Source of the DNA: Planctomycetia bacterium
Lineage (GTDB): Bacteria > Planctomycetota > GCA-002687715
DNA length: 64,000 bases
Direction: 5' to 3'
Assembly (NCBI GenBank): GCA_005790545.1
Contig: SXUL01000036.1
Coordinates: forward strand, 6,534 to 70,533
Shown: one piece after another, positions 2,099-63,766 of the stretch
Numbering within the stretch: the stretch's first letter is position 1
How the letters are laid out: each line of letters starts with the position of its first letter
Program-made: the position numbers and the translations under genes
The notes under the pieces: model-generated
What the model was told of the DNA's origin: nothing
Databases searched by the model: none
The model's input: only the letters and a program-made list of their open reading frames with translations

Positions 2099-3562
2099 GT
2101 GCTGAAGACTTGTCTCTGTATCGTTTTGGTGGCTCTTTCCGCGCTGCATGCGCAGGTGCTCGATGGCACCGTGATGGTGAGTGACAGCAATGCCGGGAGT
2201 GCTGACAAGACATTCGGTCTTCTGCTGGATGCGCCGAGTGCGAAGCTCTACGTGACGCTTTGCGGCTCACTGGCACCTTGGACAGCTCCGCCGTCCAGTT
2301 GGGGTGGATGGAACAACGATGACCTCGCGCGCATCGACCTCGCCACCTTCACGCAGGATGGTGTCGCACCTGTGGGGCTCTTCCCTGAGGACATCGCCAT
2401 TTCGCGACATGCCAACGGTGCTGCGCGCCATCTCTGGGTGAGCAACAGCACGGACGGCACAGTGACGCGCCTGAACCCGGACCTCAGCGGTGCGGTGACG
2501 ATCATGCTCACGCCCTGCTGGGGCGCAAATCTCGCAAGCGTCTATCCCTTCGGCATCATCGCTTCCGAGGATGGCTCTCGCGTCTACGTCTCGGGCACCT
2601 CCTGCGGCAATCTCGATGTCATTGATGCCGATCCCGCGAGCCCGAACTTCAGCGCCATCCTCAGCACCATTGCCGTGCCGGACATGTTCGGTCGGCCAGC
2701 TTGGGTGAACGCGACAACTCTCGCGATCCCCTTCACCACCTACAACTTCGATCCCGTTGTCGGCTACGCCACCTCATCCATCACAGGCATCAAGGTGCTC
2801 AATGTGACGACGGGGATCATCACGGGCACCATCACCACCGGTCCTGCGCTCACGTGGGCCTACCCGAGCATCACCGACATCGTGAAGACGCCTGCTGGCA
2901 AGCTCATCGGCGCCGTGGGCTACGGCAGCGCGCCGGAGATCGTGGAATTCGACCCCGTCACCATGAGCCTCAGCCGCACCAGCTTCCTGCCTCCCCTCAC
3001 CGTGGGCCTCGGCCTCCACGGCGTCACACTGGATCCACTCGGAAAGACCCTCGCCGTGACAGACATGCTCGGGCATCAGGTGCTCTTCGTCGACGTGGCG
3101 ACACTCTCGCTCCTCGGAAGCGCCATGACCGGCGTGCTCTCCCAGCCGAATGAAGTCCAGTACGCGCCAGATGGCAGCCGTCTCTATGTGAGTCTGCAGG
3201 GGCAGCCTGCCGTGCAGAAGTGGCGCGCGCTTCCCGGCCACGACCTCACGCTTTCGGCGCCTCCGTTCACCAGCACCGGGCAACCCGCGAACCTCACCCT
3301 CTCAAATCTCGAGGCCGGGAACGCTGGTTACATCTTCATGAGCCTTGGAGAAGGCCCCACCAACGTGGGCGTCGCCACCATCGCGCTCTCGTGGCCCTTC
3401 GACCTCTTCCTCGCGCTCAGCGCTGACAGCGTCGGCCATGTCGAGTCTGCGCTGGTCGTTCCGGCGGGCCTTTCGGGGCTGACATTCCATTTCCAGGCCG
3501 CCACCATCGATGCGGACGGCGCTCTCCGGATCTCGAACCCGGCCCAAGTCACCGTGCTCTGA
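2099..3562 (+). CDS. Secreted YncE/YVTN-like beta-propeller protein with C-terminal beta-sandwich domain; candidate cobamide-binding protein
   Basis: GTG start at 2099 preceded by GGAGG; signal peptide LKTCLCIVLVALSALHA-Q; propeller-type blades (VGLFPEDIAIS, DGSRVYVS, PNEVQYAPDGSRLYVS); C-terminal GLTFHFQAATID...ISN. Lies downstream of the B12 riboswitch. Confidence 0.8.
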   Translation: MLKTCLCIVLVALSALHAQVLDGTVMVSDSNAGSADKTFGLLLDAPSAKLYVTLCGSLAPWTAPPSSWGGWNNDDLARIDLATFTQDGVAPVGLFPEDIAISRHANGAARHLWVSNSTDGTVTRLNPDLSGAVTIMLTPCWGANLASVYPFGIIASEDGSRVYVSGTSCGNLDVIDADPASPNFSAILSTIAVPDMFGRPAWVNATTLAIPFTTYNFDPVVGYATSSITGIKVLNVTTGIITGTITTGPALTWAYPSITDIVKTPAGKLIGAVGYGSAPEIVEFDPVTMSLSRTSFLPPLTVGLGLHGVTLDPLGKTLAVTDMLGHQVLFVDVATLSLLGSAMTGVLSQPNEVQYAPDGSRLYVSLQGQPAVQKWRALPGHDLTLSAPPFTSTGQPANLTLSNLEAGNAGYIFMSLGEGPTNVGVATIALSWPFDLFLALSADSVGHVESALVVPAGLSGLTFHFQAATIDADGALRISNPAQVTVL

Positions 3563-33134: not shown

Positions 33135-35573
33135 TCAGTTCGAGATGGCCATCACGAAGTTGCTGTAGCGTTGGCGCCCATTGTTCGCCGCGTTGTTGCG
33201 GAAGCTCGCAAGAAAGCGGAAGAAGCGACGGCCCGTGAGCTGGGGCGCCAGAGGTTGCGCCGTATTGCGGAGAACCAACTGGTTCGTGGTTCCGGTTGCC
33301 GGGCTGCCGGTGAAGTAGGTCAGCATGCCCGTCGTCGGCCCGACCGGGTTGTTCGGACTCGCGATCGCGCTGGCACCTTCAAGCTGCCACACGGCGTTCG
33401 TCCCCGCAGGCTGGGATGCCGGGGATGGCGCGATGGAGAAGCTCTCGTAGATGGGCAAACCCACCGCGATGTTGGTGTCATAGAACGTCGAGCGCGCAGC
33501 CGCCGCGACGGGCACGAAGGTGAAGCGCATGTCGTAGATATCGCAGCCCGCCGCAGCGCTGACGTTGACGCCGCTGAAGCAGTTGGGCGTCATTGCCTTG
33601 GGTGGACCTGCGATGCGTCGGGCCGGGGTATTGGCGGACGAACGATAGCGGTTGAGGTTGAGGACGGTCAGCGTATTCGGGTCGAGGTTCTGCTCGAAGA
33701 CGAGGGCGCCGACGCCGACGCCTGAGCCGGTGTAATCAAAGGGCTGGGTGAATGCCGGGAACGGGTAGTAGGAAGTGAACCCCGGACCGCAGTTGAACGG
33801 CGCCGGATTGGTCACGCGAATCCCGCCCATGCTGCCCGCGGGCGGCGTGGCCGTGGACATGGGGCAATTCCCGTTGTTGTTGGGAGGATTCAGATTGAGC
33901 GGATCGGGAATCTGCGCCGTGGTCAGGTTGTAATTGAACGAGTAGAGCGCCGAGAGGCCGTTCTGACCGATCGGACAGTTGGCCGGGGCCTGAAGATTGG
34001 TCATCCCCGCCCAAGCGACGTAGCCCGGATAGAGAGCAATGTTGATGAAATTCTGCACGGGGCCGTACTCGACGAGCTCGAGCGAGTTTCTCGTGCCACC
34101 CAGATCAATCGCCTCATAGAGGTGCATGATGTGAGAGCCGCCCTGCGGATTCACTGCGGCGCCCAGATTGGCCGTTGGCGTGTCGAAGGGAGCCACGAGC
34201 CCTGGTGGGTTTGTCGTGCCGCCCACAGTGCCCACGAACTGCACGCCCGGAGTGAGCACGCGCTGGATGCGTGTCCCGAGATTGCCGGGGTTGCCCTGGT
34301 AGGTAGCGAGGGGTGAACCCGAGATCTGGCAACCACCCAGGAAACCCGCGTCAAAGGCTGCGTTCCACGCCGCTGCATTGAACTGCGCCACGTAGGTGGC
34401 GTCGCGTCCAGTGAGGCTGGCGAAGTCCTCCACCACCGAGGTCGAAGCCACACAGGGGGGACAGGCCGCACTGGTGAGGTTCACCGTGAGAATGCCGTTG
34501 GTCACGGTTCCGCCGGCCACATTGCTCGAGGGGAAGTTCAACGCGAGCTGCTGGGGAGGGCTGCCTTGCGGACGCCCGAGAATCGGGGTGATGCCCTGCG
34601 CATTGACCCCCACGAGCTTCACTTGAATGCTGTAGCCAAGCGGGCCGTACGACGGAGATGGCGTGAAGGTGGCAATGTTCGGAGTGGCAGCCTGAACCAC
34701 CACGTTCCCAGGAACGATGGAGTTGTTGAGGGTCACGTTGCGCACGGTGAAGTTCACGAGTTGGTCAAGGCTGTTCCCGTCGATGGCCTTGGTGAAGGTC
34801 ACCACGATGGTGTCCGTGCCGGTCATGGGATTCTGAAGACTGCCGGAGGTCACGCTCACGACGCTCGGCGGAATGGGGTCGGGCCCCGTGCCGGCACCCA
34901 CGTCGAAAATCTGCGCGATGGCCGGCTGCGTCGAGCACACCGGGGCCGGGAGCGGAAGGAGAAGCGGGCTCACTCCGCGCGTCAGCGCCGGGACGTTGCC
35001 AATCCAGAGGTTGCTGTTGGGCGGGATGTAGTAGGTGTACTGCGTCGCGGCCTGGAAGCCCGAATTGAATGGAGCTCCCATGGGATTCGGAGTCGTGACG
35101 CGGGGATCGACCACGAGGGTGTTCGGCTTCGTGGTGTGCCGCCCGACGATGTAACTCCCGAGCATCGGAGCATTCAGAGAGTTGGCTCGCACCTGAATGG
35201 ACAGCTGCGCCAACGCCTGATTGGCGAAAGGATAGTACGGAACGCCACCACTGGTCACCGTGGGCGACACGCCGAGGAGTTGCAACGCCTGACCGCCAAC
35301 CTGGAAGTACCCGCCGAAGCGCGTGATGTCGATGGGCCCGTCGAAGGTGAATTCGAGGGTCTCATCAATGAAGACCTGGGGCAGCGGCGAAGCCTGGTTC
35401 GGGTTGCAGGGAACCACTTCGTTGCCACTGAACGACGTCGCGACGAGGATGCCGGATGCGTTGGAGCCTGTGCCGCCCGCTCCGCCTCCGCCACCACAAC
35501 CGCCCATCGTGATCGCCACAAGCAGGGCGACAGACACAAACAGAATTGCTCCGGACACTTTCAGCCGCTGCAT
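33135..35573 (-). CDS. Large surface lipoprotein with Ig-like (Big_5/SbsA-like) domain
   Basis: SD AAGGAG; signal II ...AITMGG|C followed by a Gly linker; PPSVVSV...IVVTFTKAID..SL...ATFTP Ig-like segment; P/N/T/G-rich, few charged residues. Confidence 0.75.
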   Translation of the reverse strand: MQRLKVSGAILFVSVALLVAITMGGCGGGGGAGGTGSNASGILVATSFSGNEVVPCNPNQASPLPQVFIDETLEFTFDGPIDITRFGGYFQVGGQALQLLGVSPTVTSGGVPYYPFANQALAQLSIQVRANSLNAPMLGSYIVGRHTTKPNTLVVDPRVTTPNPMGAPFNSGFQAATQYTYYIPPNSNLWIGNVPALTRGVSPLLLPLPAPVCSTQPAIAQIFDVGAGTGPDPIPPSVVSVTSGSLQNPMTGTDTIVVTFTKAIDGNSLDQLVNFTVRNVTLNNSIVPGNVVVQAATPNIATFTPSPSYGPLGYSIQVKLVGVNAQGITPILGRPQGSPPQQLALNFPSSNVAGGTVTNGILTVNLTSAACPPCVASTSVVEDFASLTGRDATYVAQFNAAAWNAAFDAGFLGGCQISGSPLATYQGNPGNLGTRIQRVLTPGVQFVGTVGGTTNPPGLVAPFDTPTANLGAAVNPQGGSHIMHLYEAIDLGGTRNSLELVEYGPVQNFINIALYPGYVAWAGMTNLQAPANCPIGQNGLSALYSFNYNLTTAQIPDPLNLNPPNNNGNCPMSTATPPAGSMGGIRVTNPAPFNCGPGFTSYYPFPAFTQPFDYTGSGVGVGALVFEQNLDPNTLTVLNLNRYRSSANTPARRIAGPPKAMTPNCFSGVNVSAAAGCDIYDMRFTFVPVAAAARSTFYDTNIAVGLPIYESFSIAPSPASQPAGTNAVWQLEGASAIASPNNPVGPTTGMLTYFTGSPATGTTNQLVLRNTAQPLAPQLTGRRFFRFLASFRNNAANNGRQRYSNFVMAISN

Positions 35574-35650
35574 GCGCAAGCTCTCCTTTGATTCCAACCC
35601 ATTCCACCCCGTTGGCAGCCGGGTGGCCTCGCGCACGTGGCGCGGGGCCG

Positions 35651-35839: not shown

Positions 35840-37015
35840 TCATGCACCCGAGGCCGCCTCTTCGCAGTAATCACAGCGAGCGGTGCCGCTGGCGCCCTTG
35901 ACGAGACGTGCCCACTCCGGCGCTTCTTTGGCAGTGATACAGCTCGGATTTGCGCAGCGCCCTTCCACCCATGCGCCATCGCTCGACTGCCTCTCAGGGC
36001 CCTTGGGCAGGTCTACCAGCCCACAGCACCACAAGAGCAGCGCCATGCGAATGGGCACTCCGAGCGCCGCTTGACGGAAGTAAGCCGCGCGTGGGTCCGC
36101 ATCCAGCTCTCTCGCGATTTCGGAGACCCTCGGCAGGGGGTGAAGCACAATGCTCTCGTTGAAAGTGGGCGACGAGAGGAAGCGATGGTCGAGGATCGGC
36201 AGTGTGCCGCCGCCTGAGCCTCCGGCCAGGCGTTCCTTCTGAAGCCGTGTCACATAGATGGCGCTCACGCGACGGCCGGCCAGATCCAATGTTGCGGGCC
36301 CTGCCCCTGCGGCGGGCAGCATCGCGCGCGGCGCAATGAGTGTCGCGCAGACGCCTCGGCGCTTGAAAATCGCCTCCATGTCGTCGATGACCACTTCGCG
36401 CACGCCGTAGCCGGGCCGCTCGGCAAGATCACTCATGACGAAGGGCGGGAGCGTGAGGTCCCCGTCAGGAATCGCGAGCACGGTGGCGCCGAAGCGCACG
36501 AGGGCCCGCGAGAGCGAATGGACCGTGCGACCGAAACGAAGATCGCCGTAGAGCACGACGGTCTGTCCGGCGATGGGACCACGCTCACAACGCAGGGTGT
36601 AGAGATCGCACAGGGTCTGAGAGGGATGCTCGTGGCTGCCGTCACCGGCGTTGATGACCGGCCCCTTGGCGAGTCGGGCCGCGAGTCGCGCCGCGCCGGA
36701 CAATGGATGGCGCAGCACGAGCACGTCCACATAGCTGTCGACGATGCGCACTGTGTCGGCCAGCGTCTCACCCTTGACGGTGGATGACGTGTCGGGGTCG
36801 CTGCTCGTCACAACGCGCCCGCCGAGGCGCTGCATGCTGGTCTCGAAACTGAGGCGCGTGCGCGTACTGGGTTCGAGAAAGAGGCTCCCCATGACGTGAC
36901 CGGGAAGATCCGCAGTATGACCGCGCAAGTTGCCGCGGATGCGGTCCGCGAGATCCATGAGCTCGACAAGCGCAGCGTCGCCGAGATCGTCAATGGTGAT
37001 GAAGTCGCGTTTCAT
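35840..37015 (-). CDS. pyrB: Aspartate carbamoyltransferase catalytic chain with fused C-terminal PyrI-type zinc domain
   Basis: EPSTRT, KGETLADT, INAGDGSHEHPSQ, GDLRFGRTVHS, TRLQKER, HPLPR, YFRQA; C-terminal CANPSCIT...RCDYCE. Start ATG 37015 overlaps the upstream stop. Confidence 0.93.
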   Translation of the reverse strand: MKRDFITIDDLGDAALVELMDLADRIRGNLRGHTADLPGHVMGSLFLEPSTRTRLSFETSMQRLGGRVVTSSDPDTSSTVKGETLADTVRIVDSYVDVLVLRHPLSGAARLAARLAKGPVINAGDGSHEHPSQTLCDLYTLRCERGPIAGQTVVLYGDLRFGRTVHSLSRALVRFGATVLAIPDGDLTLPPFVMSDLAERPGYGVREVVIDDMEAIFKRRGVCATLIAPRAMLPAAGAGPATLDLAGRRVSAIYVTRLQKERLAGGSGGGTLPILDHRFLSSPTFNESIVLHPLPRVSEIARELDADPRAAYFRQAALGVPIRMALLLWCCGLVDLPKGPERQSSDGAWVEGRCANPSCITAKEAPEWARLVKGASGTARCDYCEEAASGA

Positions 37016-38097
37016 GGCCCCAGCTCTCTTGCCAACGACCGGATGCGCTCCGGCTCGGGGGGCTCCCGAGTGAGCGCGTCCGCAAGCCCGGCAAGCAATC
37101 GTTGCTGCCGGAGGGTGAAAGCGCAAGGCGGCAACCGATCCGCAGCCTGCCACGCGGCAAAGGGCGAGTGCTGGATCAGTGCACGCTCGAGCAGAGGGAG
37201 CCCCTCTCCCCGCATCGCCGCAAGCGGCAGCCCCCGTGCGGCACCGAGATCGCTCTTGGAGGCCAAGAGCAGCACGCGCTCGTCACCCTGCAGTTCCGAG
37301 AGCACCATGTCGGCGCGAGCGTCTGGTGCATCGAGCACGAGCAGGATGTCGGCACTCTTCCACGCAGCACGTGTCATCCCCACAGCGAGCGCTTCAACCG
37401 GATCCCCGGCTGGCCGGAGCCCGGCGGCATCGCGCAGGAGAAACGGCCACCCTCCCACTGCGATCTGCGCATCGAGGACATCGCGTGTGGTTCCTGCCTC
37501 GTCAGAAACGATGGCTGCGTCTCTCCCGGCGAGTGCATTGAACAGGGTGGATTTTCCTGCATTGGGCGCGCCGCAAAGCAACACGACACAGCCCTTGGAG
37601 AGGGCCAGACCGAGCGGCAGGCGACCGGCGGCTGCGCGGAGTCCCGCCGCCCATTCCAGCCGCTCTGGCGGCGCTCCAGCCGCGAGAGCACGAAGTTGTT
37701 CACGCAACAGGTGCAGCGCCGGCCCGCAGGCCAGTTCGAGCGTGCGCTGGGCGAATGCGCTGCGTGCGAGTGCCAGGCATTCCTCCTCGATGCTCGCGGC
37801 CACGGCCATCCGCTCGATGCCCATGACTCCGAGCAGGAGTTCAAACGCCCGGCCTACTGCCGGGGAACCATGCAAGGAAACCTCGATCCGCCCCGCGTGA
37901 TCCGGGCCGGCCAGCATCACTTCATCGAGCACGGCTCCGTCCGCCAGGATGTGGCCGAAGCGGAGCATTCCCGTTTCCGCCCTCCCCGCGCGAAAGAACT
38001 GCGGCAGCAGATCCGCGGCGCCGGACAACTCGTACACCTGCAAAGCGGAGTGCCCACGCCCTGACAGGCGGCGCCAGGCCGGGCCTTCAGACTTCAT
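37012..38097 (-). CDS. MnmE/TrmE-like GTPase paralog lacking the C-terminal FCIGK motif
   Basis: LDEVML, IEVSLHG, GAPNAGKS, AIVSDEAGTTRD, DAAGLR, SKSD; short helical domain; no FCxGK. Confidence 0.85.
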   Translation of the reverse strand: MKSEGPAWRRLSGRGHSALQVYELSGAADLLPQFFRAGRAETGMLRFGHILADGAVLDEVMLAGPDHAGRIEVSLHGSPAVGRAFELLLGVMGIERMAVAASIEEECLALARSAFAQRTLELACGPALHLLREQLRALAAGAPPERLEWAAGLRAAAGRLPLGLALSKGCVVLLCGAPNAGKSTLFNALAGRDAAIVSDEAGTTRDVLDAQIAVGGWPFLLRDAAGLRPAGDPVEALAVGMTRAAWKSADILLVLDAPDARADMVLSELQGDERVLLLASKSDLGAARGLPLAAMRGEGLPLLERALIQHSPFAAWQAADRLPPCAFTLRQQRLLAGLADALTREPPEPERIRSLARELGP

Positions 38098-38791
38098 GAG
38101 CGAACTCGAGCCCGCGCAAGACGAGCAGCGGGTCCACGCGCGCAGCATTTCCAATCAGCTCGGCGACAGCTTCCGCGTCACCCCCCGTGATCCAAAGGGA
38201 CGCTCCAGGCAGAGCTGTGCGAGCGCGCCGCAACGCCTCGTGCACAAGGCCCGCAAAGGCGCTGTCCAATCCGAGGCCAACGCAGGACGCGGATGTGCGC
38301 GCCGGAAAGTCAGCGCCTGCTTCCCCGCGCGGCAAGGCCGGAGCGGCGGACGCAAGTCCCGCAGCCAAGGCCCGCCTGCCGGGAGCAATCAGTCCTCCCC
38401 GAAAGATGCCGGATTCATCCACTGCATCGAGGGTGAGGGCCGTGCCTGCGCTCAACACGAGCACCGGCCCCGAGCTCATCCGTTGCGCAGCCTCGGCAGC
38501 AGCCACGCGGTCCATGCCCAACGTTGCGAGCGAGTCGTAGGCGAGCGTGAGACCACACTTCAGGGACTGGCCGAGCACGAAGCGTCGCGCACAACCGGCT
38601 GCGGCGGCCGCAGCGAAAATCAGATCCTCCTCCCGGCACACCACCGAGACGACACGCAACTCATCGAATCCGCGCGGGATACGCGGCGTCGCTCCTGTGT
38701 CCCAGCTGTCCTGCAGCACCGGACCTTGCGGCGCAGACACCGCGAGCTTGGTACGGGTGTTCCCGACATCGACAAGGAGCCGGCCCGCCAT
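38087..38791 (-). CDS. coaX: Type III pantothenate kinase
   Basis: LLVDVGNTRTK, LGMDR, AGTALTLD, GGLIAPG, ITGGDA, LVLRGL. Confidence 0.93.
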   Translation of the reverse strand: MAGRLLVDVGNTRTKLAVSAPQGPVLQDSWDTGATPRIPRGFDELRVVSVVCREEDLIFAAAAAAGCARRFVLGQSLKCGLTLAYDSLATLGMDRVAAAEAAQRMSSGPVLVLSAGTALTLDAVDESGIFRGGLIAPGRRALAAGLASAAPALPRGEAGADFPARTSASCVGLGLDSAFAGLVHEALRRARTALPGASLWITGGDAEAVAELIGNAARVDPLLVLRGLEFAHEV

Positions 38792-38797
38792 GGTGCT

Positions 38798-39745
38798 TCA
38801 GCGTCGGGGCACCACGACCGTGCGGGTCATGGTCACACCCTTCCTGCGAATCCGGACTTCGAAGCGCGTGGTCTGAGGATTGCTCTTGGCGTAGGCGATC
38901 ACCTCAGCCTTGGTGGACATGCGCACGCCGTTGATGGATTCGAGCACGTCCCCTTCTTCCGCACCACCGCGACGCAGCACGTTGTCCGCAGGGATCGCAT
39001 CGAGGCGCACCGCAGCCTTGCCGTCCTCGAGGGTCTCGCTCGAAAAGCGCACCCCCTCCAACGTGGTATCGCCCTTGTCGGCAAGAGCGCGCGCCCCCAT
39101 CTCCGTGATCGTGATGGTCGTCGGCTTCGCGACGTTCCATTCGATCCAAGTGGTCGTATTGGCATCGATGGGTCCGACGATCTTGGGCGCCACGGCCGTG
39201 CCCGAGCCAGCCACCACGGGAGCCGGGTCTGGTTCGAGTGCGATCTCTCGACCATCGGAAATGAAGACCACGCGCCCTGGCTCGATCTGCTTCACGACCG
39301 CACCACCGGCCCACTCCACCACATGCCCTTCGAGGTAGGGCAGCAACGGATCCGGTTGCGGGCCGACGGCCGCGCCCTTCCGTCCAAAGAAGGCGAGACT
39401 CCGGCCGCCTTCAGGCGAGTACTGGATCACAAGGACCTTCAGCACCGTTTCAACCGGAGCCTTCGGCAGCGCCACAGGCTTCGAATTGTCCTCCTTCGGT
39501 GCTGGTGGCTTCACCGGCCACAGCACCCCATCCTTGATGTTGGTGCCGTACTCCGTTCGCCGGCGTCCCAGCGCGGCATCGGGGCGAATCTTCTTCAACT
39601 GCTCCACCATGCCGTTGCGGTAGCTCGTCAGCTCGTCGCTACGGCTGCCCTTCTCCTGCACCACGGTGAAGACCGTTGCGCCGATGCCGAGAACAAGCGC
39701 CACATCGGCGCAGACAATGAACTTGTGCAATGTGGAGAGTTTCAT
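38798..39745 (-). CDS. Bitopic membrane protein with HR-like and PDZ domains (GspC-like)
   Basis: N-terminal TM; central GAVVKQIEPGRVVF resembling the GspC HR domain; C-terminal PDZ GAEEGDVLESING...IRRKG. Confidence 0.65.
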   Translation of the reverse strand: MKLSTLHKFIVCADVALVLGIGATVFTVVQEKGSRSDELTSYRNGMVEQLKKIRPDAALGRRRTEYGTNIKDGVLWPVKPPAPKEDNSKPVALPKAPVETVLKVLVIQYSPEGGRSLAFFGRKGAAVGPQPDPLLPYLEGHVVEWAGGAVVKQIEPGRVVFISDGREIALEPDPAPVVAGSGTAVAPKIVGPIDANTTTWIEWNVAKPTTITITEMGARALADKGDTTLEGVRFSSETLEDGKAAVRLDAIPADNVLRRGGAEEGDVLESINGVRMSTKAEVIAYAKSNPQTTRFEVRIRRKGVTMTRTVVVPRR

Positions 39746-58435: not shown

Positions 58436-60163
58436 CTATCGGGGAGATGGTGCCTGGAAGAGGTCGCCTTGAACCTCTTCGGCCAGCGCATCCGGGGCCG
58501 CAAAACGCACCCAGCGCAACGCCGTTTTCGTCACCAAACCGTCGAGAACCGCTGAGGCGCCGCGCTCCGAAGTGAGCGCGAGTGGCAGAGGCACGACGCC
58601 ACCCAACGACGCGGTCAGTTCTCTGGACAAGAGGCCCCGGTGAATCGGCGCATCCAGCGGCCAGCCAAGAGGAAGCACGGTGTCCGCGCTCCGCCCCGGA
58701 GCCCCCGCGGTGGAGGCGGCCGCCAGCGTGACCTCGCTCGGGCGACCAGACGCGGCTGGATCCACATCGAGCAGACACGCGACCAAGCGTGCCGCCAGGC
58801 GCGGTCGCTCCTGAGCACGCGAGGCTCCTCTGTGCACCAGCAGGTCGAGTGCCTCGCCGAGGTGCAATAATCTCACCTCTGTACGTTCGACGAGTTCCCG
58901 GGAGGGCAGCCCGAGCTCTTCGAGGACGGCGGCAAGGAACGTGCCCTGTTGGACGCGGCCGCGCTCGGCCTCGATCTCGCGGACGAGCGAACGTGCCCGC
59001 ACCATGGCCACGTCGGCCGCATCGAGGCTCTGCACGGACTGAAACAACTGCAGAAGATCGATGCCTGCTTCGACCAACCCGATGGAGATGGGCTCGGGCC
59101 GGTCGCGCAACAGAAAGGCCGCACCCAGCGACGCCTGCTCCAGCAGCAGCGGTTCTGGAGTTGCAGCGTCAAAACGCCAGAGCACATCCACGCCGAGATC
59201 CCGTCGCCAGTGACGTGTGCTCTCCACCAGCGCCGCCTCGAGAGGCAGATCCACGGCTACGCGCGCGCTGCAACCGGCACGGCGAGCTTGACGCACGGTA
59301 TCGATCAGCACCTCGAGAAGGGCTTCTCCGGCGACGCGCTGTGCGTGTGCCACTCCGGTGAAACACAGCGTGCCGCGCACGAGCGGGAGCAGTCGGGAGA
59401 TCCAGGCCGCGAACGTCGCGGGTGTGGAAGGAACGACACCCAGCACCAAGGACGAGGCGCGCAACGGATCGCCGAGCCCGGGCAGCGTGATGTCCCCGGA
59501 CGCGGCTGCCGCCGCCACAGCGCCCGCGTGTACTTCGAGCAGCAGCAGCTTCTCGAACGCGGCCGCCGCCACCATTCTGTCGCCAAGCTGCGGATCGCCA
59601 CCAGCACTGCCAAGGCGCGCACCCAACGTGCGCGGCGAGAGCGCCACACTCACCGCTGCTCGAGCCGCGCTTCCGTCGAGGGCAATCAACGCGCTGGCCG
59701 CGAGTTCCGCAAGCAAACCGCTGGACACGAGTTCGACGCGCAACGCCGCCAACTGGCGCTCGACGCGCAGTGCGATCTCTCCGGCGATGACATCCGGCAG
59801 GCCCGCGTTGCGCACCAAGGAGAGCACGAAGCGCTCATGCGCAAATGGCCCACGGCCATCCACGCCCTGCACTTCGAGATGTCCGAGGAGCGCGGCGCGC
59901 TCGCGACGCTCGTGCACGAGATGGCGTGCGGCCGCCTCATGCCCGGTGGATTCGAGCACATTCGCCAACAGGTCCTCGTACTCAGGCTCCGAGAGATCCC
60001 GCAGCGGCCCCTTCTGCACCAGTTCCATCACGGCATCGGCAAGCACACGCGCCAGCGCAGGAGGCGCCTCCGTGGATGCGATGAGCGCGTCGGCGAGCTC
60101 CGCCTCGACCTCACCATGCAGCAGCGGCGCCGTGGAACCGTCAGCTCTGCGCACCCGCCGCAT
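58436..60163 (-). CDS. Hypothetical protein with two degenerate ATP-cone domains and a degenerate class III RNR (NrdD)-like body
   Basis: [10 protein letters not shown]... and [16 protein letters not shown]...[12 protein letters not shown]...VSSGLLAEL resemble ATP cones; [15 protein letters not shown] aligns by eye with NrdD aH..GDIHxHDL; no catalytic Cys, Zn site or glycyl-radical motif. Overlaps nrdR by 23 nt. Confidence 0.6.
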
Positions 60164-60670: not shown

Positions 60671-61963
60671 TCATTTGCCGATGCAGAACTGGCTGAAGAT
60701 GCGATCGAGCAGTCGCGCCGGCGCATCACTGCCGGTGACGGCGGAGATCTCTCGCAATGCCTCATGGAGATCCGCCGCCGCGAGCTCGCGCTCGCCCGCT
60801 GCGCCAAGGAGCGTCCGCGCGCGCGCGACCGCCATGGCGGCCAAACGGCAATGCTCAGCCTGACGTACCGAGGCCACAGAACCGGAGACGTGCGGAACGA
60901 GCCGCTGGAACATGGCCAGGCGCAGCTGCGGAATTCCTTTGCCCGTCAACCCGCTGACGGCCAGCACGCCGGCGGGACAGGCACCCAGATCCGCGTGCGT
61001 GAGGACCGGGAGACTCCGCGCAGCGGGACGCGCTGCCGGCTGGCCCGGAGCGCGCACCTCGAGGAGGAGATCCGCGGCTGCAAGCCACGCCGCGCGACGC
61101 GCCTGTGCCTCAACATCGGCTGCGGCGGGGACAACGTCTGACCCTGCGGTGTCCACCAACCGCACCAGCATTTCGTCCAACTCGCACTGCCCCTCCACCG
61201 CATCACGTGTCGTGCCAGCAAAGGGGCTCGCCAGCGCGCGCTCGGATCCAGAGAGCGCATTGAACAGCGTCGACTTGCCCGCGTTCGCCGGCCCGCTCAA
61301 GACCACCAGCGGCACCCCGCTGCTTGCACACGGGCCAGCAGTGTCAGCCGCCAGTTGCGAGAGCAGCCCGGCAGTGCGCGCAAGCGATGCGGAAGCATCC
61401 ACTGGCAGCGGAATCTCGACATCGTCATCCTGAAAGTCGAACCCCAGTTCGAGCGGAATCAAGACCGCCTGGATGGCCGAAGTGCAACTCGCGAGCCGAC
61501 GGGCGAGGCCACCTTCAAGGACAAAGACGGCGCGCTGCCGCTCCGCCTCGGACTCGGCGGCCACCAGCGAACCAACCGCTTCTGCCCGCGCAAGGTCGAG
61601 TTTGCCGTGTTCGAGAGCACGGCGCGTGAATTCTCCCGCGGATGCATCCACGATGCCCTCGGCCAGCAGCGTTTCGCGGAGCAGGGCCGCGAGCAGCGGC
61701 GCTCCCGGGAAATGCACTTCGAGGCAGTCCTCGCCGGTTGCGCTGCGAGGCGCCTTTCTCCACCAGAGCGCAGCCGGCACCTCGAGCACGCCGAGCCGGA
61801 GAGAGAGTGCTTGAACGGCGGAAGGCGTGTCGAACACGGCTCTGCTCGCTGGCTGGAGTTTCTCCAGGACGGGCCGCGCGAGCGGCCCGGAAATCCGCAG
61901 CACCTGTCGCGCTGCAGGGACACGCGCGCAGGCCATCGCCATGATGGTGCGCGCGTCGGCCAT
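60671..61963 (-). CDS. mnmE: tRNA modification GTPase MnmE (degenerate G domain)
   Basis: LRISG, SATGEDCLE, GEFTRRALEHGKLDL, GPANAGKS, GTTRD, DTAG, terminal FSQFCIGK; canonical position after yidC. Confidence 0.9.
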   Translation of the reverse strand: MADARTIMAMACARVPAARQVLRISGPLARPVLEKLQPASRAVFDTPSAVQALSLRLGVLEVPAALWWRKAPRSATGEDCLEVHFPGAPLLAALLRETLLAEGIVDASAGEFTRRALEHGKLDLARAEAVGSLVAAESEAERQRAVFVLEGGLARRLASCTSAIQAVLIPLELGFDFQDDDVEIPLPVDASASLARTAGLLSQLAADTAGPCASSGVPLVVLSGPANAGKSTLFNALSGSERALASPFAGTTRDAVEGQCELDEMLVRLVDTAGSDVVPAAADVEAQARRAAWLAAADLLLEVRAPGQPAARPAARSLPVLTHADLGACPAGVLAVSGLTGKGIPQLRLAMFQRLVPHVSGSVASVRQAEHCRLAAMAVARARTLLGAAGERELAAADLHEALREISAVTGSDAPARLLDRIFSQFCIGK

Positions 61964-61966
61964 GCT

Positions 61967-63766
61967 TCAGCTCTGCCGTGCGCGCAGCGAACGGATGATG
62001 CGCCCTTCCACGATGCCGATGCTGCTGCTCACCAGCCAGTAGAGAGAGAGTCCCGCCGCGTAGCTGTACATCATGAACCCGAAGAGAACGGGCATGAACA
62101 ACATCATCTTGCGCTGCTGCTCCATCTGCGGGTCGCTGGTGGCCGGCTTCGGCATGAGCCACGAGTTCAGGAACCACGCGACAGTCATGAGGATCGGCAA
62201 GAGGTGCAGCCCGGTCAGCGCAGGAGCGCCACCGACGCAGGAGCTGCAGCCCGGGATGAATCCGCACAGAGACATCGGATTCGCCATGGGGCTCGCGAAA
62301 GTGATGAGATGGTCGGGTTGCGACAGGTCCGCCACCCACCACCAGCCGGCCTGCCGGAGGTCAATGGATGCGCGCAGCGCAGAGAAGAGACCGAAGAAGA
62401 TCGGGATCTGCAGCAGCATCGGCAAGCACCCGCCGAGTGGCACGAGCTTCACCTTCTCCTCGCGCATCATCTTCATCTGCTCTTCAGCGAATTTGCGCGA
62501 GTCACCCTCGTGCTTCTTCTTGAGCGCTTCGAGCTTCGGCTTCAATTTCGCCATCTGCTCCTGGTGCTTCGCCATCGCGTCCTGACTGCGACGATTCACC
62601 GGGAAGAGCACGCAGCGCACGAGCAATGTCATCAGGATGATGGCGATGCCCCAGTTGCCGCACAGGCCGTGCATCAAGTCGAGCAGGAACAGCACCGCGC
62701 GGCCGATGACCCGGGCCCAACCAAGTTGGTCGCGATAGATGAGCGCGAGCGCCTCGGCAGCCGCCGGTTTGTCGGCCAGGTCCGCCGCAACGATGCGGTC
62801 GTCCACCGGCCCCATGTAAATCAGCCCCGAGTGGGTGACAGGCGCAGCACCGGCTTCGGCACGCATGCCGAACTCGATGCAGGTGGCGGTACGCACCTGA
62901 TCCGTTGCCCCATCATCCTTGCGGTCCTGCGCGGCCACTTCCTCGACGCGCGCCACGACGGAGTCGGGGAACGACTCGAGCAAAAGCAGCATGCCGAAGT
63001 AGTTCGAGAAATCACCGGCGAAGCGCTGTGCGCCGGCGAGCGCAAGGGACTTTCCGGCCGACTCTTCGTGCACCTCGGGAGCCATGACGGCGCGGTATTC
63101 ACGCTCCACGCCGTTCAGGCCCGCATGAGCCGGTGTCGCGGCCGACGCGCCAGGTTCCTGAAAGACCCCGGGCGTCACCTGCAAGGCGAGATCGAGCGGA
63201 AAGACCGCATTCGCAGCCCCTTCGGCCCGCACACTGCAACGCAGTTCCGCATGCAAGCTGTGGCCCGCCGGAAGGCTGAGTTCCTTCTTGACGAACACAC
63301 GCCCGCCGGGCCGCTCCACGCTGCGCTCCATGACCAGCGTGCGGCCGTCCGCGGATTTCGCGAGCTGCCACATGTGCCCGCTGCCGAGATCATCGTTCTT
63401 GGTCGCCCGCAATTCGAGGGCTGCATGCTTGTCCCCCGACTGCGCATGCACCAGCAGCAGATCGCGCTCGCTGCCTACGCTTGGATGACGTCCCTTCAAC
63501 TCGACCCGCGTGAGCACGGCTCCGTCGTTGGAGACGACCAGACGCACGTCGTCGTTCTCGAGCACTTCCTCGCGGCGCTCGACCTCGGGCATGGCTGCAA
63601 CCCGCACGGCCGGTGCAACCGGCTGCGACGATTCGACCGGCTTCGGAGCTTCGCTCGCGGGCGGCGTCACCGGCTTCGGCGCGGGTGTCGGGCCCGGAAA
63701 GAGAAACTGCCATCCGAGCAGTACCGCGAGGGAAAGGACGAGTGCGAGGAGGAATCGCTTTTCCAT
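61967..63766 (-). CDS. yidC: Membrane protein insertase YidC
   Basis: N-terminal TM, periplasmic domain, YMGP, NWGIAIILMT, GGCLPMLLQIPIF, AGLSLYW. Confidence 0.96.
   Translation of the reverse strand: MEKRFLLALVLSLAVLLGWQFLFPGPTPAPKPVTPPASEAPKPVESSQPVAPAVRVAAMPEVERREEVLENDDVRLVVSNDGAVLTRVELKGRHPSVGSERDLLLVHAQSGDKHAALELRATKNDDLGSGHMWQLAKSADGRTLVMERSVERPGGRVFVKKELSLPAGHSLHAELRCSVRAEGAANAVFPLDLALQVTPGVFQEPGASAATPAHAGLNGVEREYRAVMAPEVHEESAGKSLALAGAQRFAGDFSNYFGMLLLLESFPDSVVARVEEVAAQDRKDDGATDQVRTATCIEFGMRAEAGAAPVTHSGLIYMGPVDDRIVAADLADKPAAAEALALIYRDQLGWARVIGRAVLFLLDLMHGLCGNWGIAIILMTLLVRCVLFPVNRRSQDAMAKHQEQMAKLKPKLEALKKKHEGDSRKFAEEQMKMMREEKVKLVPLGGCLPMLLQIPIFFGLFSALRASIDLRQAGWWWVADLSQPDHLITFASPMANPMSLCGFIPGCSSCVGGAPALTGLHLLPILMTVAWFLNSWLMPKPATSDPQMEQQRKMMLFMPVLFGFMMYSYAAGLSLYWLVSSSIGIVEGRIIRSLRARQS

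Follow-up and report, generated by a model that had tools for sequence, protein, structure and literature searches.

A window of 64,000 nucleotides from the genome of a Planctomycetia bacterium (contig SXUL01000036.1, positions 6,534 to 70,533) encodes two MnmE-type proteins. MnmE is the GTPase of 5-carboxymethylaminomethyl (cmnm5) synthesis at tRNA position U34 and is the textbook case of a GTPase activated by homodimerisation. One of the two genes, open reading frame (ORF) B at 60671..61963, is the true, ordinary MnmE of this genome. The other, ORF-A at 37012..38097, encodes a member of a separate family of shortened MnmE-like GTPases found mainly in Planctomycetota. The short protein is read here, with a probability of about 40%, as an accessory, non-docking, asymmetric dimer partner of MnmE. 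This reading was built on direct observations of family membership, architecture, missing parts, genome distribution and a predicted interface, from which we infer heterodimer formation in cells and its role. The features of ORF-A are:

37012..38097 (-): ORF-A (P0001), shortened MnmE-like GTPase of 361 residues, from the translation; stop codon at 37012-37014
37798..38097 (-): N-terminal TrmE_N-like domain, residues ~1-100, from the hhalign alignment and the secondary structure of the model
37168..37587 (-): G domain, residues ~171-310, from the sequence, with columns conserved across the 138-sequence family
37549-37572 (-): G1, GAPNAGKS
37480-37494 (-): G2, GTTRD
37420-37431 (-): G3, DAAG
37393-37395 (-): Glu235, 12 residues past the G3 Asp223
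37249-37260 (-): G4, SKSD
37015..37167 (-): C-terminal part, short and helical, residues 311-361, carrying the family motif PPCAFTLRQQ

Both translations were read, and every motif that an earlier sequence-only reading had listed for the two MnmE-type genes was found. The ORF-A translation carries YELSG, GAPNAGKS, AAIVSDEAGTTRD, DAAGLR, Glu235 and SKSD. Judged by these motifs, the set expected of a K+-type G domain (GxxNxGKS, GTTRD, DxxG, the catalytic Glu and xKxD) is complete, in agreement with the claim that this copy keeps the GTPase machinery, including the Glu 12 residues past the G3 Asp and SKSD. The GEFxxRA..GK segment and FCIGK, also claimed to be lost, are indeed absent, and the C-terminus reads ...ARELGP. 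The reported loss of the RxSG Arg holds as well: Glu23 of YELSG occupies the position, and the Arg is invariant in the canonical MnmE set (95/95). The sequence-only reading labelled this Arg, a putative folate contact, "folate-site". In profile alignments, the swivel helix of MnmE is absent from the C-terminal part of ORF-A.

Pfam recognized MMR_HSR1 alone in ORF-A, with TrmE_N falling short of E 0.01. A TrmE_N-like fold was recovered by hhalign (probability 100%) and in an AlphaFold2 model that resembles full-length MnmE, and TrmE_N scores 48.8-68.9 bits on less diverged members of the short family. The model, computed with the 138-sequence family alignment, has a predicted local distance difference test score (pLDDT) of 92.3 and a predicted template modelling score (pTM) of 0.82. 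A Foldseek comparison of this model with the PDB ranks full-length MnmE chains first: 9hiq_A (E 4.3e-21), followed by 9hip, 1xzq and 3gee. Scores against the NCBIfam models lie below their cut-offs, at 128.8 bits for NF003661 (cut-off 380) and 86.4 bits for TIGR00450 (cut-off 252.6), and the match spans profile positions 212-402 only. BLASTP aligns ORF-A with ORF-B over G1-G3 only, with 48% identity over 67 residues. Comparison of the ORF-A family profile with the canonical MnmE profile by hhalign gave a probability of 100% and E 8.3e-72, and on this profile evidence the two are therefore true paralogs, with chance resemblance ruled out.

Two other identities were considered for ORF-A. The G domain alone finds its best sequence matches in Der (EngA) and Era. 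The one G domain of ORF-A lies between an N-terminal and a helical part of MnmE type, and assignment to Der or Era was rejected on this architecture, the full-length structural matches being MnmE. A decaying pseudogene was rejected on the intact frame, the high-confidence model and the conserved orthologs.

A word-based search for relatives of ORF-A returned only a few full-length ones (356-408 residues). A short-family profile was built from six of these and run against 1.84 billion representative proteins. Single, whole-profile matches of at least 194 bits, in proteins of 328-451 residues, made up 147 of the best 150; ORF-A itself scores 548 bits. The family alignment (n = 138) combines the first six with 132 of the 147 new proteins among the best 150 matches; the other 15, which were matched in more than one stretch or whose N-terminus was cut short or extended, were left out. 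The G3 Asp is present in 138/138, followed by Leu, Ile or Val at +4 in 124, Arg at +5 in 114 and Glu at +12 in 127 (Asp in 10). The G4 Lys is kept in 134/138 and the G4 Asp in 135/138. An Arg at the RxSG position occurs in 37/138, and 0/138 end in GK, the ending of all canonical MnmEs in the comparison set (95/95). Members of the family have ~330-450 residues, a TrmE_N-like N-terminus, one standard G domain and a C-terminal ..FT.RQ.. motif, and they lack the docking loop and CxGK; ORF-A fits this definition. The N-terminus corresponds to the domain with which MnmE dimerises and binds folate, and the G domain is, by its motifs and catalytic Glu, of the K+-dependent kind that dimerisation activates. 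The short-family profile matches Thermotoga maritima TrmE at E 2.6e-95.

Alignment of the short and canonical families by hhalign revealed only two large segments that are canonical-only. One is the LEAxLDFxDED loop (ORF-B residues ~167-192), which is deleted in the short family. The other is the last ~48 alignment columns, containing the final helix and FCIGK, for which there is no short-family counterpart. The loop is likewise deleted in the alignment of the short profile to T. maritima TrmE. In a recent structural study, the main MnmG-contacting loop of MnmE is E. coli E171-G187, and a "swivel helix" brings C451 and K454 to the flavin adenine dinucleotide (FAD) site of MnmG (PMC12397908). 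Because the docking loop, the swivel helix and FCIGK are missing, the short proteins, as far as their sequences tell, cannot do the job of the MnmG-engaged MnmE protomer, nor carry out the known MnmE chemistry alone. The family flags hundreds of database proteins, named "tRNA modification GTPase MnmE" in some cases and "50S ribosome-binding GTPase" in others, that cannot be MnmE in function. Compared with known MnmE (TrmE/ThdF; 1xzp, 3gee, 3geh, 9hip/9hiq), ORF-A shares the N-terminal fold, the G domain inserted in the helical domain, GxPNxGKS, GTTRD, DxAGLR and the Glu at +12. It differs in the missing docking loop, the missing last ~48 columns with FCIGK, the missing GEFxxRA..GK segment and the missing invariant Arg. 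The ORF-A lineage has also lost two motifs that are present elsewhere in the short family, the SFTGED-type one and G.LD..AEA, and by this loss it is an extra-stripped branch, the most stripped form of the family.

Longer forms of ~430-440 residues with an insert in the helical part (L143 in genome G132 and L144 in G120) and smaller forms of ~320-340 residues (G080:C66:46471-47421, G041:C1:7047-7943 and G015:C16:96295-97269) also occur in the short family. A CxGK ending was seen in none of the long or small forms read. One in-frame stop codon per match was noted in some short genes: TAG in G043 (G043:C1:3247384-3248502), G139:C116 and G096:C5, TAA in G357:C1 (not compared with the canonical copy) and TGA in G105:C3. 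These may be pseudogenes, sequencing errors or cases of recoding.

The short family is not a local product of this genome's lineage. A FastTree of 93 rows, with long branches and with neither bootstrap values nor an outgroup root, sets 46 short-type rows including ORF-A apart by a branch of 100% local support. In the same tree, 25 planctomycete canonical MnmEs are grouped with 98% support, with one unlabelled database row within, and the group is nested among canonical MnmEs of other phyla. By this tree the short proteins form a clade of their own, and an old one. Record titles and ESM Atlas taxa place it mainly in Planctomycetota. Five genomes from three other families carry one canonical and one short gene each, and in genome G050 the short gene is found beside a fully standard canonical MnmE (DTAGIR, Glu at +12, NKSD). 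Because the short family coexists with a standard MnmE in other families, ORF-A is, on this comparison, not a recent duplicate dividing functions with ORF-B.

A related-locus search of genome contigs used a G1 pattern that was too generic, and most of the 80 loci returned were alphaproteobacterial canonical MnmE. Four of the 11 that were read are short-type (Pirellulaceae, Brocadiaceae, Phycisphaerae and one contig labelled Anaerolineales). The last of these, L086 (CAYWVR010000091.1, 2365 nucleotides), belongs to a metagenome-assembled genome and holds a short-type gene identical to P0153; either the contig is planctomycete and was mis-binned, or the family occurs, rarely, in another phylum.

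The features of the full-length protein are:

60671..61963 (-): ORF-B (P0002), orthologous MnmE of 430 residues, from Pfam and full-length structure alignments
61895-61897 (-): Arg23
61601-61636 (-): GEFTRRALEHGK
61415-61453 (-): MnmG-docking loop, LELGFDFQDDDVE
61271-61294 (-): G1
61202-61216 (-): G2
61142-61153 (-): G3, DTAG
61115-61117 (-): Asp283, 12 residues past Asp271
60989-61000 (-): G4, THAD
60674-60688 (-): terminal FCIGK

The ORF-B translation reads RISG, TGED, GEFTRRALEHGK, GPANAGKS, GTTRD, DTAGSD, Asp283, THAD and the terminal FCIGK. Pfam identified TrmE_N (66 bits), MnmE_helical (86.1 bits) and MMR_HSR1, the protein aligns end to end with the solved MnmE structures 3gee and 9hip, and the three-domain architecture ending in FCIGK is present. 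The source genome, a draft of 2.87 Mb that is 91% complete, also encodes MnmG (GIDA 497.7 bits and SAM_GIDA_C 70.5 bits, one open frame on contig C9). ORF-B thus resembles known MnmE in its three domains, FCIGK, its position after yidC and the MnmG of its genome. It differs from it in Asp for Glu at +12, a DTAG that is not followed by Leu-Arg, THAD in place of [NT]KxD, and NCBIfam scores below cut-off (241.5 bits against 380 for NF003661, though the match is full-length at 4-448 of 448; 163.2 bits against 252.6 for TIGR00450). The MnmG frame is 764 residues long (G000:C9:3959-5722; L002, L003); a typical MnmG has ~630.

Switch II of ORF-B reads DTAGSD, with Asp283 at +12 and Glu285 at +14. The sequence-only reading had placed an Asp at the position of E. 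coli E282. By count this stands, and the acid is conserved in the order, but in the HMMER alignment with E. coli MnmE a two-residue gap after DTAG puts Glu285 on E282. E282 is called "an invariant Glu-residue" positioning the attacking water (PMC2749940). Orthologs of ORF-B were found in 22 of the 23 genomes of the order, the sole non-matching genome being 76% complete. Nineteen full-length orthologs were aligned, leaving out two that are split between contigs (G194, G272) and one truncated where its contig stops (L039). Every one of the 19 keeps the [FW]C[IV]GK end, GEFxxRA..G[KR].DL..AEA, G1 and GTTRD. Arg at +5 after the G3 Asp is found in 0/19, G4 is [TS][HRM]xD in 19/19, and an acid stands exactly 12 residues past the G3 Asp in 19/19 (17 Asp, 2 Glu). 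Among the 18 closest database relatives of ORF-B (P0002-P0290, alignment A3), the +12 residue is Asp in 16, Glu in one and Gly in one; the remoter MnmEs of this alignment mostly have DTAG[LIVF]R with Glu at +12.

The variant G domain of ORF-B is therefore order-wide and looks conserved, not decayed, which runs counter to reciprocal loss. Because the departure from the textbook sequence is conserved across the order, these alignments suggest a working nucleotide site that uses Asp, not a dead site. The G4 sequence THAD, read against other MnmEs, is not a strong argument for a defect, since the first position varies in ordinary MnmEs (N, T, S, A or G) and TMxD occurs in otherwise standard MnmEs (P0300, P0305, P0360). 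The "invariant" Glu282 is, in any event, not invariant in Planctomycetota.

The distribution of the two genes was assessed in 151 Planctomycetota genomes, 95 of them high-quality. MnmE_helical was detected in 126/151 genomes; among the 95 of high quality the count is 82. A second, separate, near-full-length MnmE-like locus is present in at least 91 of the 126, a lower bound because loci were compared by eye with the best 150 rows of the short-family profile search. The best short-profile E-value was rejected as a presence score, since standard MnmE reaches 1e-87 (G047, G073), and loci were compared instead. Among the 25 genomes without MnmE_helical, 22 gave G-domain-level matches only (best E 7e-42 to 6e-31) and three carry the short gene alone. 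These three are 66%, 86% and 81% complete, and a TrmE_N search found one copy apiece. None of the 13 high-quality MnmE-less genomes has the short gene either, and MnmG was not found in 5/5 MnmE-less genomes tested. The short gene nests within MnmE/MnmG-bearing genomes, and the co-occurrence of the paralogs, proposed earlier as a check on their partnership, was thereby observed: in this sample the short gene occurs almost only where MnmE does. Of the 22 other genomes in the order of the source genome, 20 contain the short gene. Several planctomycete families (f25, f28, f37, f53, f57 and others) apparently lack the U34 cmnm pathway altogether.

A complex of ORF-B and ORF-A was modelled with their own family alignments supplied. 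The interface score ipSAE was 0.81-0.82 in three runs, and the best of three controls reached 0.00. In calibration, the mark for this score was reached by 116/157 solved complexes and by 2/215 mismatched pairs. The three runs have at least 94% of contacts in common, with a partner pLDDT of at least 79. The predicted interface consists of an MnmE-type pairing of N-domains, the hinge region and ORF-B residues 427-430; on the ORF-A side, residues 9-21, 41-46, 56-66 and 72-84 take part. As a prediction, the model shows compatibility and not a preference for the heterodimer over homodimers, because structures of MnmE homodimers exist and the test is also passed by close cousins of true partners.

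For Tuwongella immobilis, a proteomics study states that the fraction containing MnmG also yielded both MnmE paralogs (PMC8567305). This one-sentence remark was the only mention found of a short or second MnmE or of an MnmE heterodimer, and the short family is undescribed in print according to these literature searches, subscription journals lying outside them. The gene names sought in an essentiality study of Planctopirus limnophila were not in its main text or in one supplement.

A role for a non-docking partner can be drawn from the E. coli enzyme. In the 2025 cryo-electron microscopy study, the two identical protomers of MnmE take different roles on MnmG binding: in the alpha2-beta2 complex only one MnmE protomer engages MnmG, docking and moving its FCIGK helix across to the FAD site, and the other stays off MnmG in the resting conformation (PMC12397908). 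A full-length/short heterodimer, itself predicted, would divide the roles likewise. ORF-B would work with the MnmG encoded by the same genome, and the N-terminal domains would pair the full-length and short proteins. Docking of MnmG and delivery of the one-carbon unit would fall to the full-length subunit. Its short partner, as the protomer that stays off MnmG, would add a standard GTPase switch to the G-domain "kiss". Such a pairing would hard-wire the asymmetry of the E. coli alpha2-beta2 complex. The E. coli protomers are identical and can swap roles, and an alpha4-beta2 form exists too, whereas here two genes would fix the roles. Heterodimeric or paired GTPases with one divergent site are known in Ffh-FtsY of the signal recognition particle and in the Rag GTPases. 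The likeness to them lies in nucleotide-dependent pairing of related G domains with unequal catalytic equipment, here putative, and there is no sequence kinship past the G-domain fold. If the accessory-partner reading is true, a widespread natural paralog separates the two protomer roles into two polypeptides, and one could then ask directly whether tRNA modification is driven by GTP hydrolysis in the one protomer or in the other.

Several observations weigh against a partnership of this kind. MnmE works without a short protein in most bacteria, and ORF-B may need no helper GTPase, since its G1, G2, G3, G4 Asp and the acid at +12 are conserved. Planctomycete genomes with canonical MnmE only exist (G012, G039, G047, G073 and G077); MnmE is standard in G047 and divergent in G012 and G039, where switch II is equally odd and the short paralog was not found. 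The co-distribution counts are phylogenetically non-independent and were taken by eye, and the complex score may reflect just a likeness to solved MnmE homodimers. ORF-A and ORF-B lie ~24 kb apart and are not one operon; ORF-A is tightly coupled to coaX and pyrB instead, and its pairing with coaX recurs across several planctomycete families for no apparent functional reason. A tie between switch II decay and the presence of the short gene was examined and dropped, as there is no clean relation: a standard MnmE is found with the short gene in G050 and without it in G047, and a divergent one without it in G012 and G039.

In a different explanation, the short protein would be an independent homodimeric GTPase outside tRNA U34 modification (for example in ribosome biogenesis or in CoA or nucleotide metabolism), and its co-occurrence with MnmE would reflect shared ancestry only. 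The short gene forms a conserved pair with coaX, sometimes behind obg, and is never beside mnmE in the loci read. The protein is without every known MnmG-contacting or chemistry element, just 37/138 members keep the Arg that is invariant in canonical MnmE, the nearest G-domain relatives include Der and Era, and the N-terminal domain could equally mediate homodimers. Other facts speak against an independent function, which is still a serious rival and is regarded as somewhat unlikely: 22/25 MnmE-less genomes are also without the short gene, the three exceptions being incomplete assemblies; MnmG is missing too from the MnmE-less genomes tested (5/5); pairing of the short protein with MnmE is predicted by the complex model; and both paralogs fractionate with MnmG in T. 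immobilis (PMC8567305). A regulatory role would explain the same interface and co-distribution as the accessory-partner reading does. Mixed dimers docking one or no MnmG, or competition for the N-domain, would then tune or damp U34 modification, and a missing docking loop and FCIGK are what would be expected of a dominant-negative-like subunit. A passive blocker would need less than a G domain that is strongly conserved and catalytically complete by its motifs, and such a role seems very improbable.

Stronger forms of the partnership can be stated. In one, most Planctomycetota MnmE would be a two-gene enzyme with an MnmG-docking FCIGK subunit and an obligatory short GTPase-switch subunit, an arrangement that let the "invariant" Glu drift; this is considered unlikely. 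The strictest form is that of the sequence-only reading, in which each protein lost in this lineage what the other keeps, neither works alone and the heterodimer is obligate. The complementary feature sets of the two proteins, with the short one lacking the docking loop, swivel helix and FCIGK, were confirmed. ORF-A is the most stripped short form, without the SFTGED-type and G.LD..AEA motifs; the ORF-B order is without the switch II Leu-Arg and Glu282, the residue termed "invariant" in PMC2749940; the order retains the two genes (MnmE in 22/23 genomes, the short gene in 20/22 others); and an ORF-A:ORF-B complex is predicted. Reciprocal loss by subfunctionalisation is not supported, however: the short clade (46 rows, 100% branch) is older than the change in ORF-B and coexists with a standard MnmE in G050. 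The variant motifs of ORF-B are conserved (acid at +12 in 19/19, [TS][HRM]xD in 19/19), TMxD is shared with otherwise standard MnmEs (P0300, P0305, P0360), and the reciprocity fails where similarly divergent MnmEs occur with no short paralog found (G012, G039). A heterodimer was thus predicted (0.82 against 0.00) as the sequence-only reading proposed, the word "obligate" finds no support, and the strict form is improbable.

The genes next to ORF-A and ORF-B are:

38087..38791 (-): coaX, type III pantothenate kinase, directly upstream of ORF-A (Pfam Pan_kinase, E 8.8e-29)
35840..37015 (-): pyrB, aspartate carbamoyltransferase, downstream of ORF-A (Pfam OTCace_N, OTCace and PyrI_C)
61967..63766 (-): yidC, directly upstream of ORF-B (Pfam 60KD_IMP, E 1e-47)

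The ORF-A ATG overlaps the coaX stop by 11 nucleotides. The ORF-A stop overlaps the pyrB start as ATGA, and by this overlap pyrB is, on the face of the sequence, translationally coupled to ORF-A. The catalytic chain encoded by pyrB is fused at its C-terminus to a PyrI_C zinc (metal-binding) domain. The yidC-mnmE order upstream of ORF-B is the classic arrangement, and nrdR is next after ORF-B on the downstream side. In nine further genomes of the order, the short gene and mnmE lie 24-58 kb apart on one contig. The coaX-short pairing was seen by tblastn at eight loci within the order (among L010-L020) and elsewhere in Phycisphaerae (L109), Pirellulaceae (L063), an f7 genome (L054) and an f5 genome (L142), with obg upstream of coaX in L063 and L109. 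In one genome (L053, G285:C5, ~2746-3306, minus strand) the 3' end of mnmG is convergent to the short gene at a distance of ~120 nucleotides.

Three further frames of the window, at 33135-35636, 58436-60163 and 38798-39745 on the minus strand (833, 575 and 315 residues), gave no Pfam match at E 1e-4. The 833-residue product of the first has a signal-peptide-like N-terminus and repeats rich in Gly, Pro and Asn.

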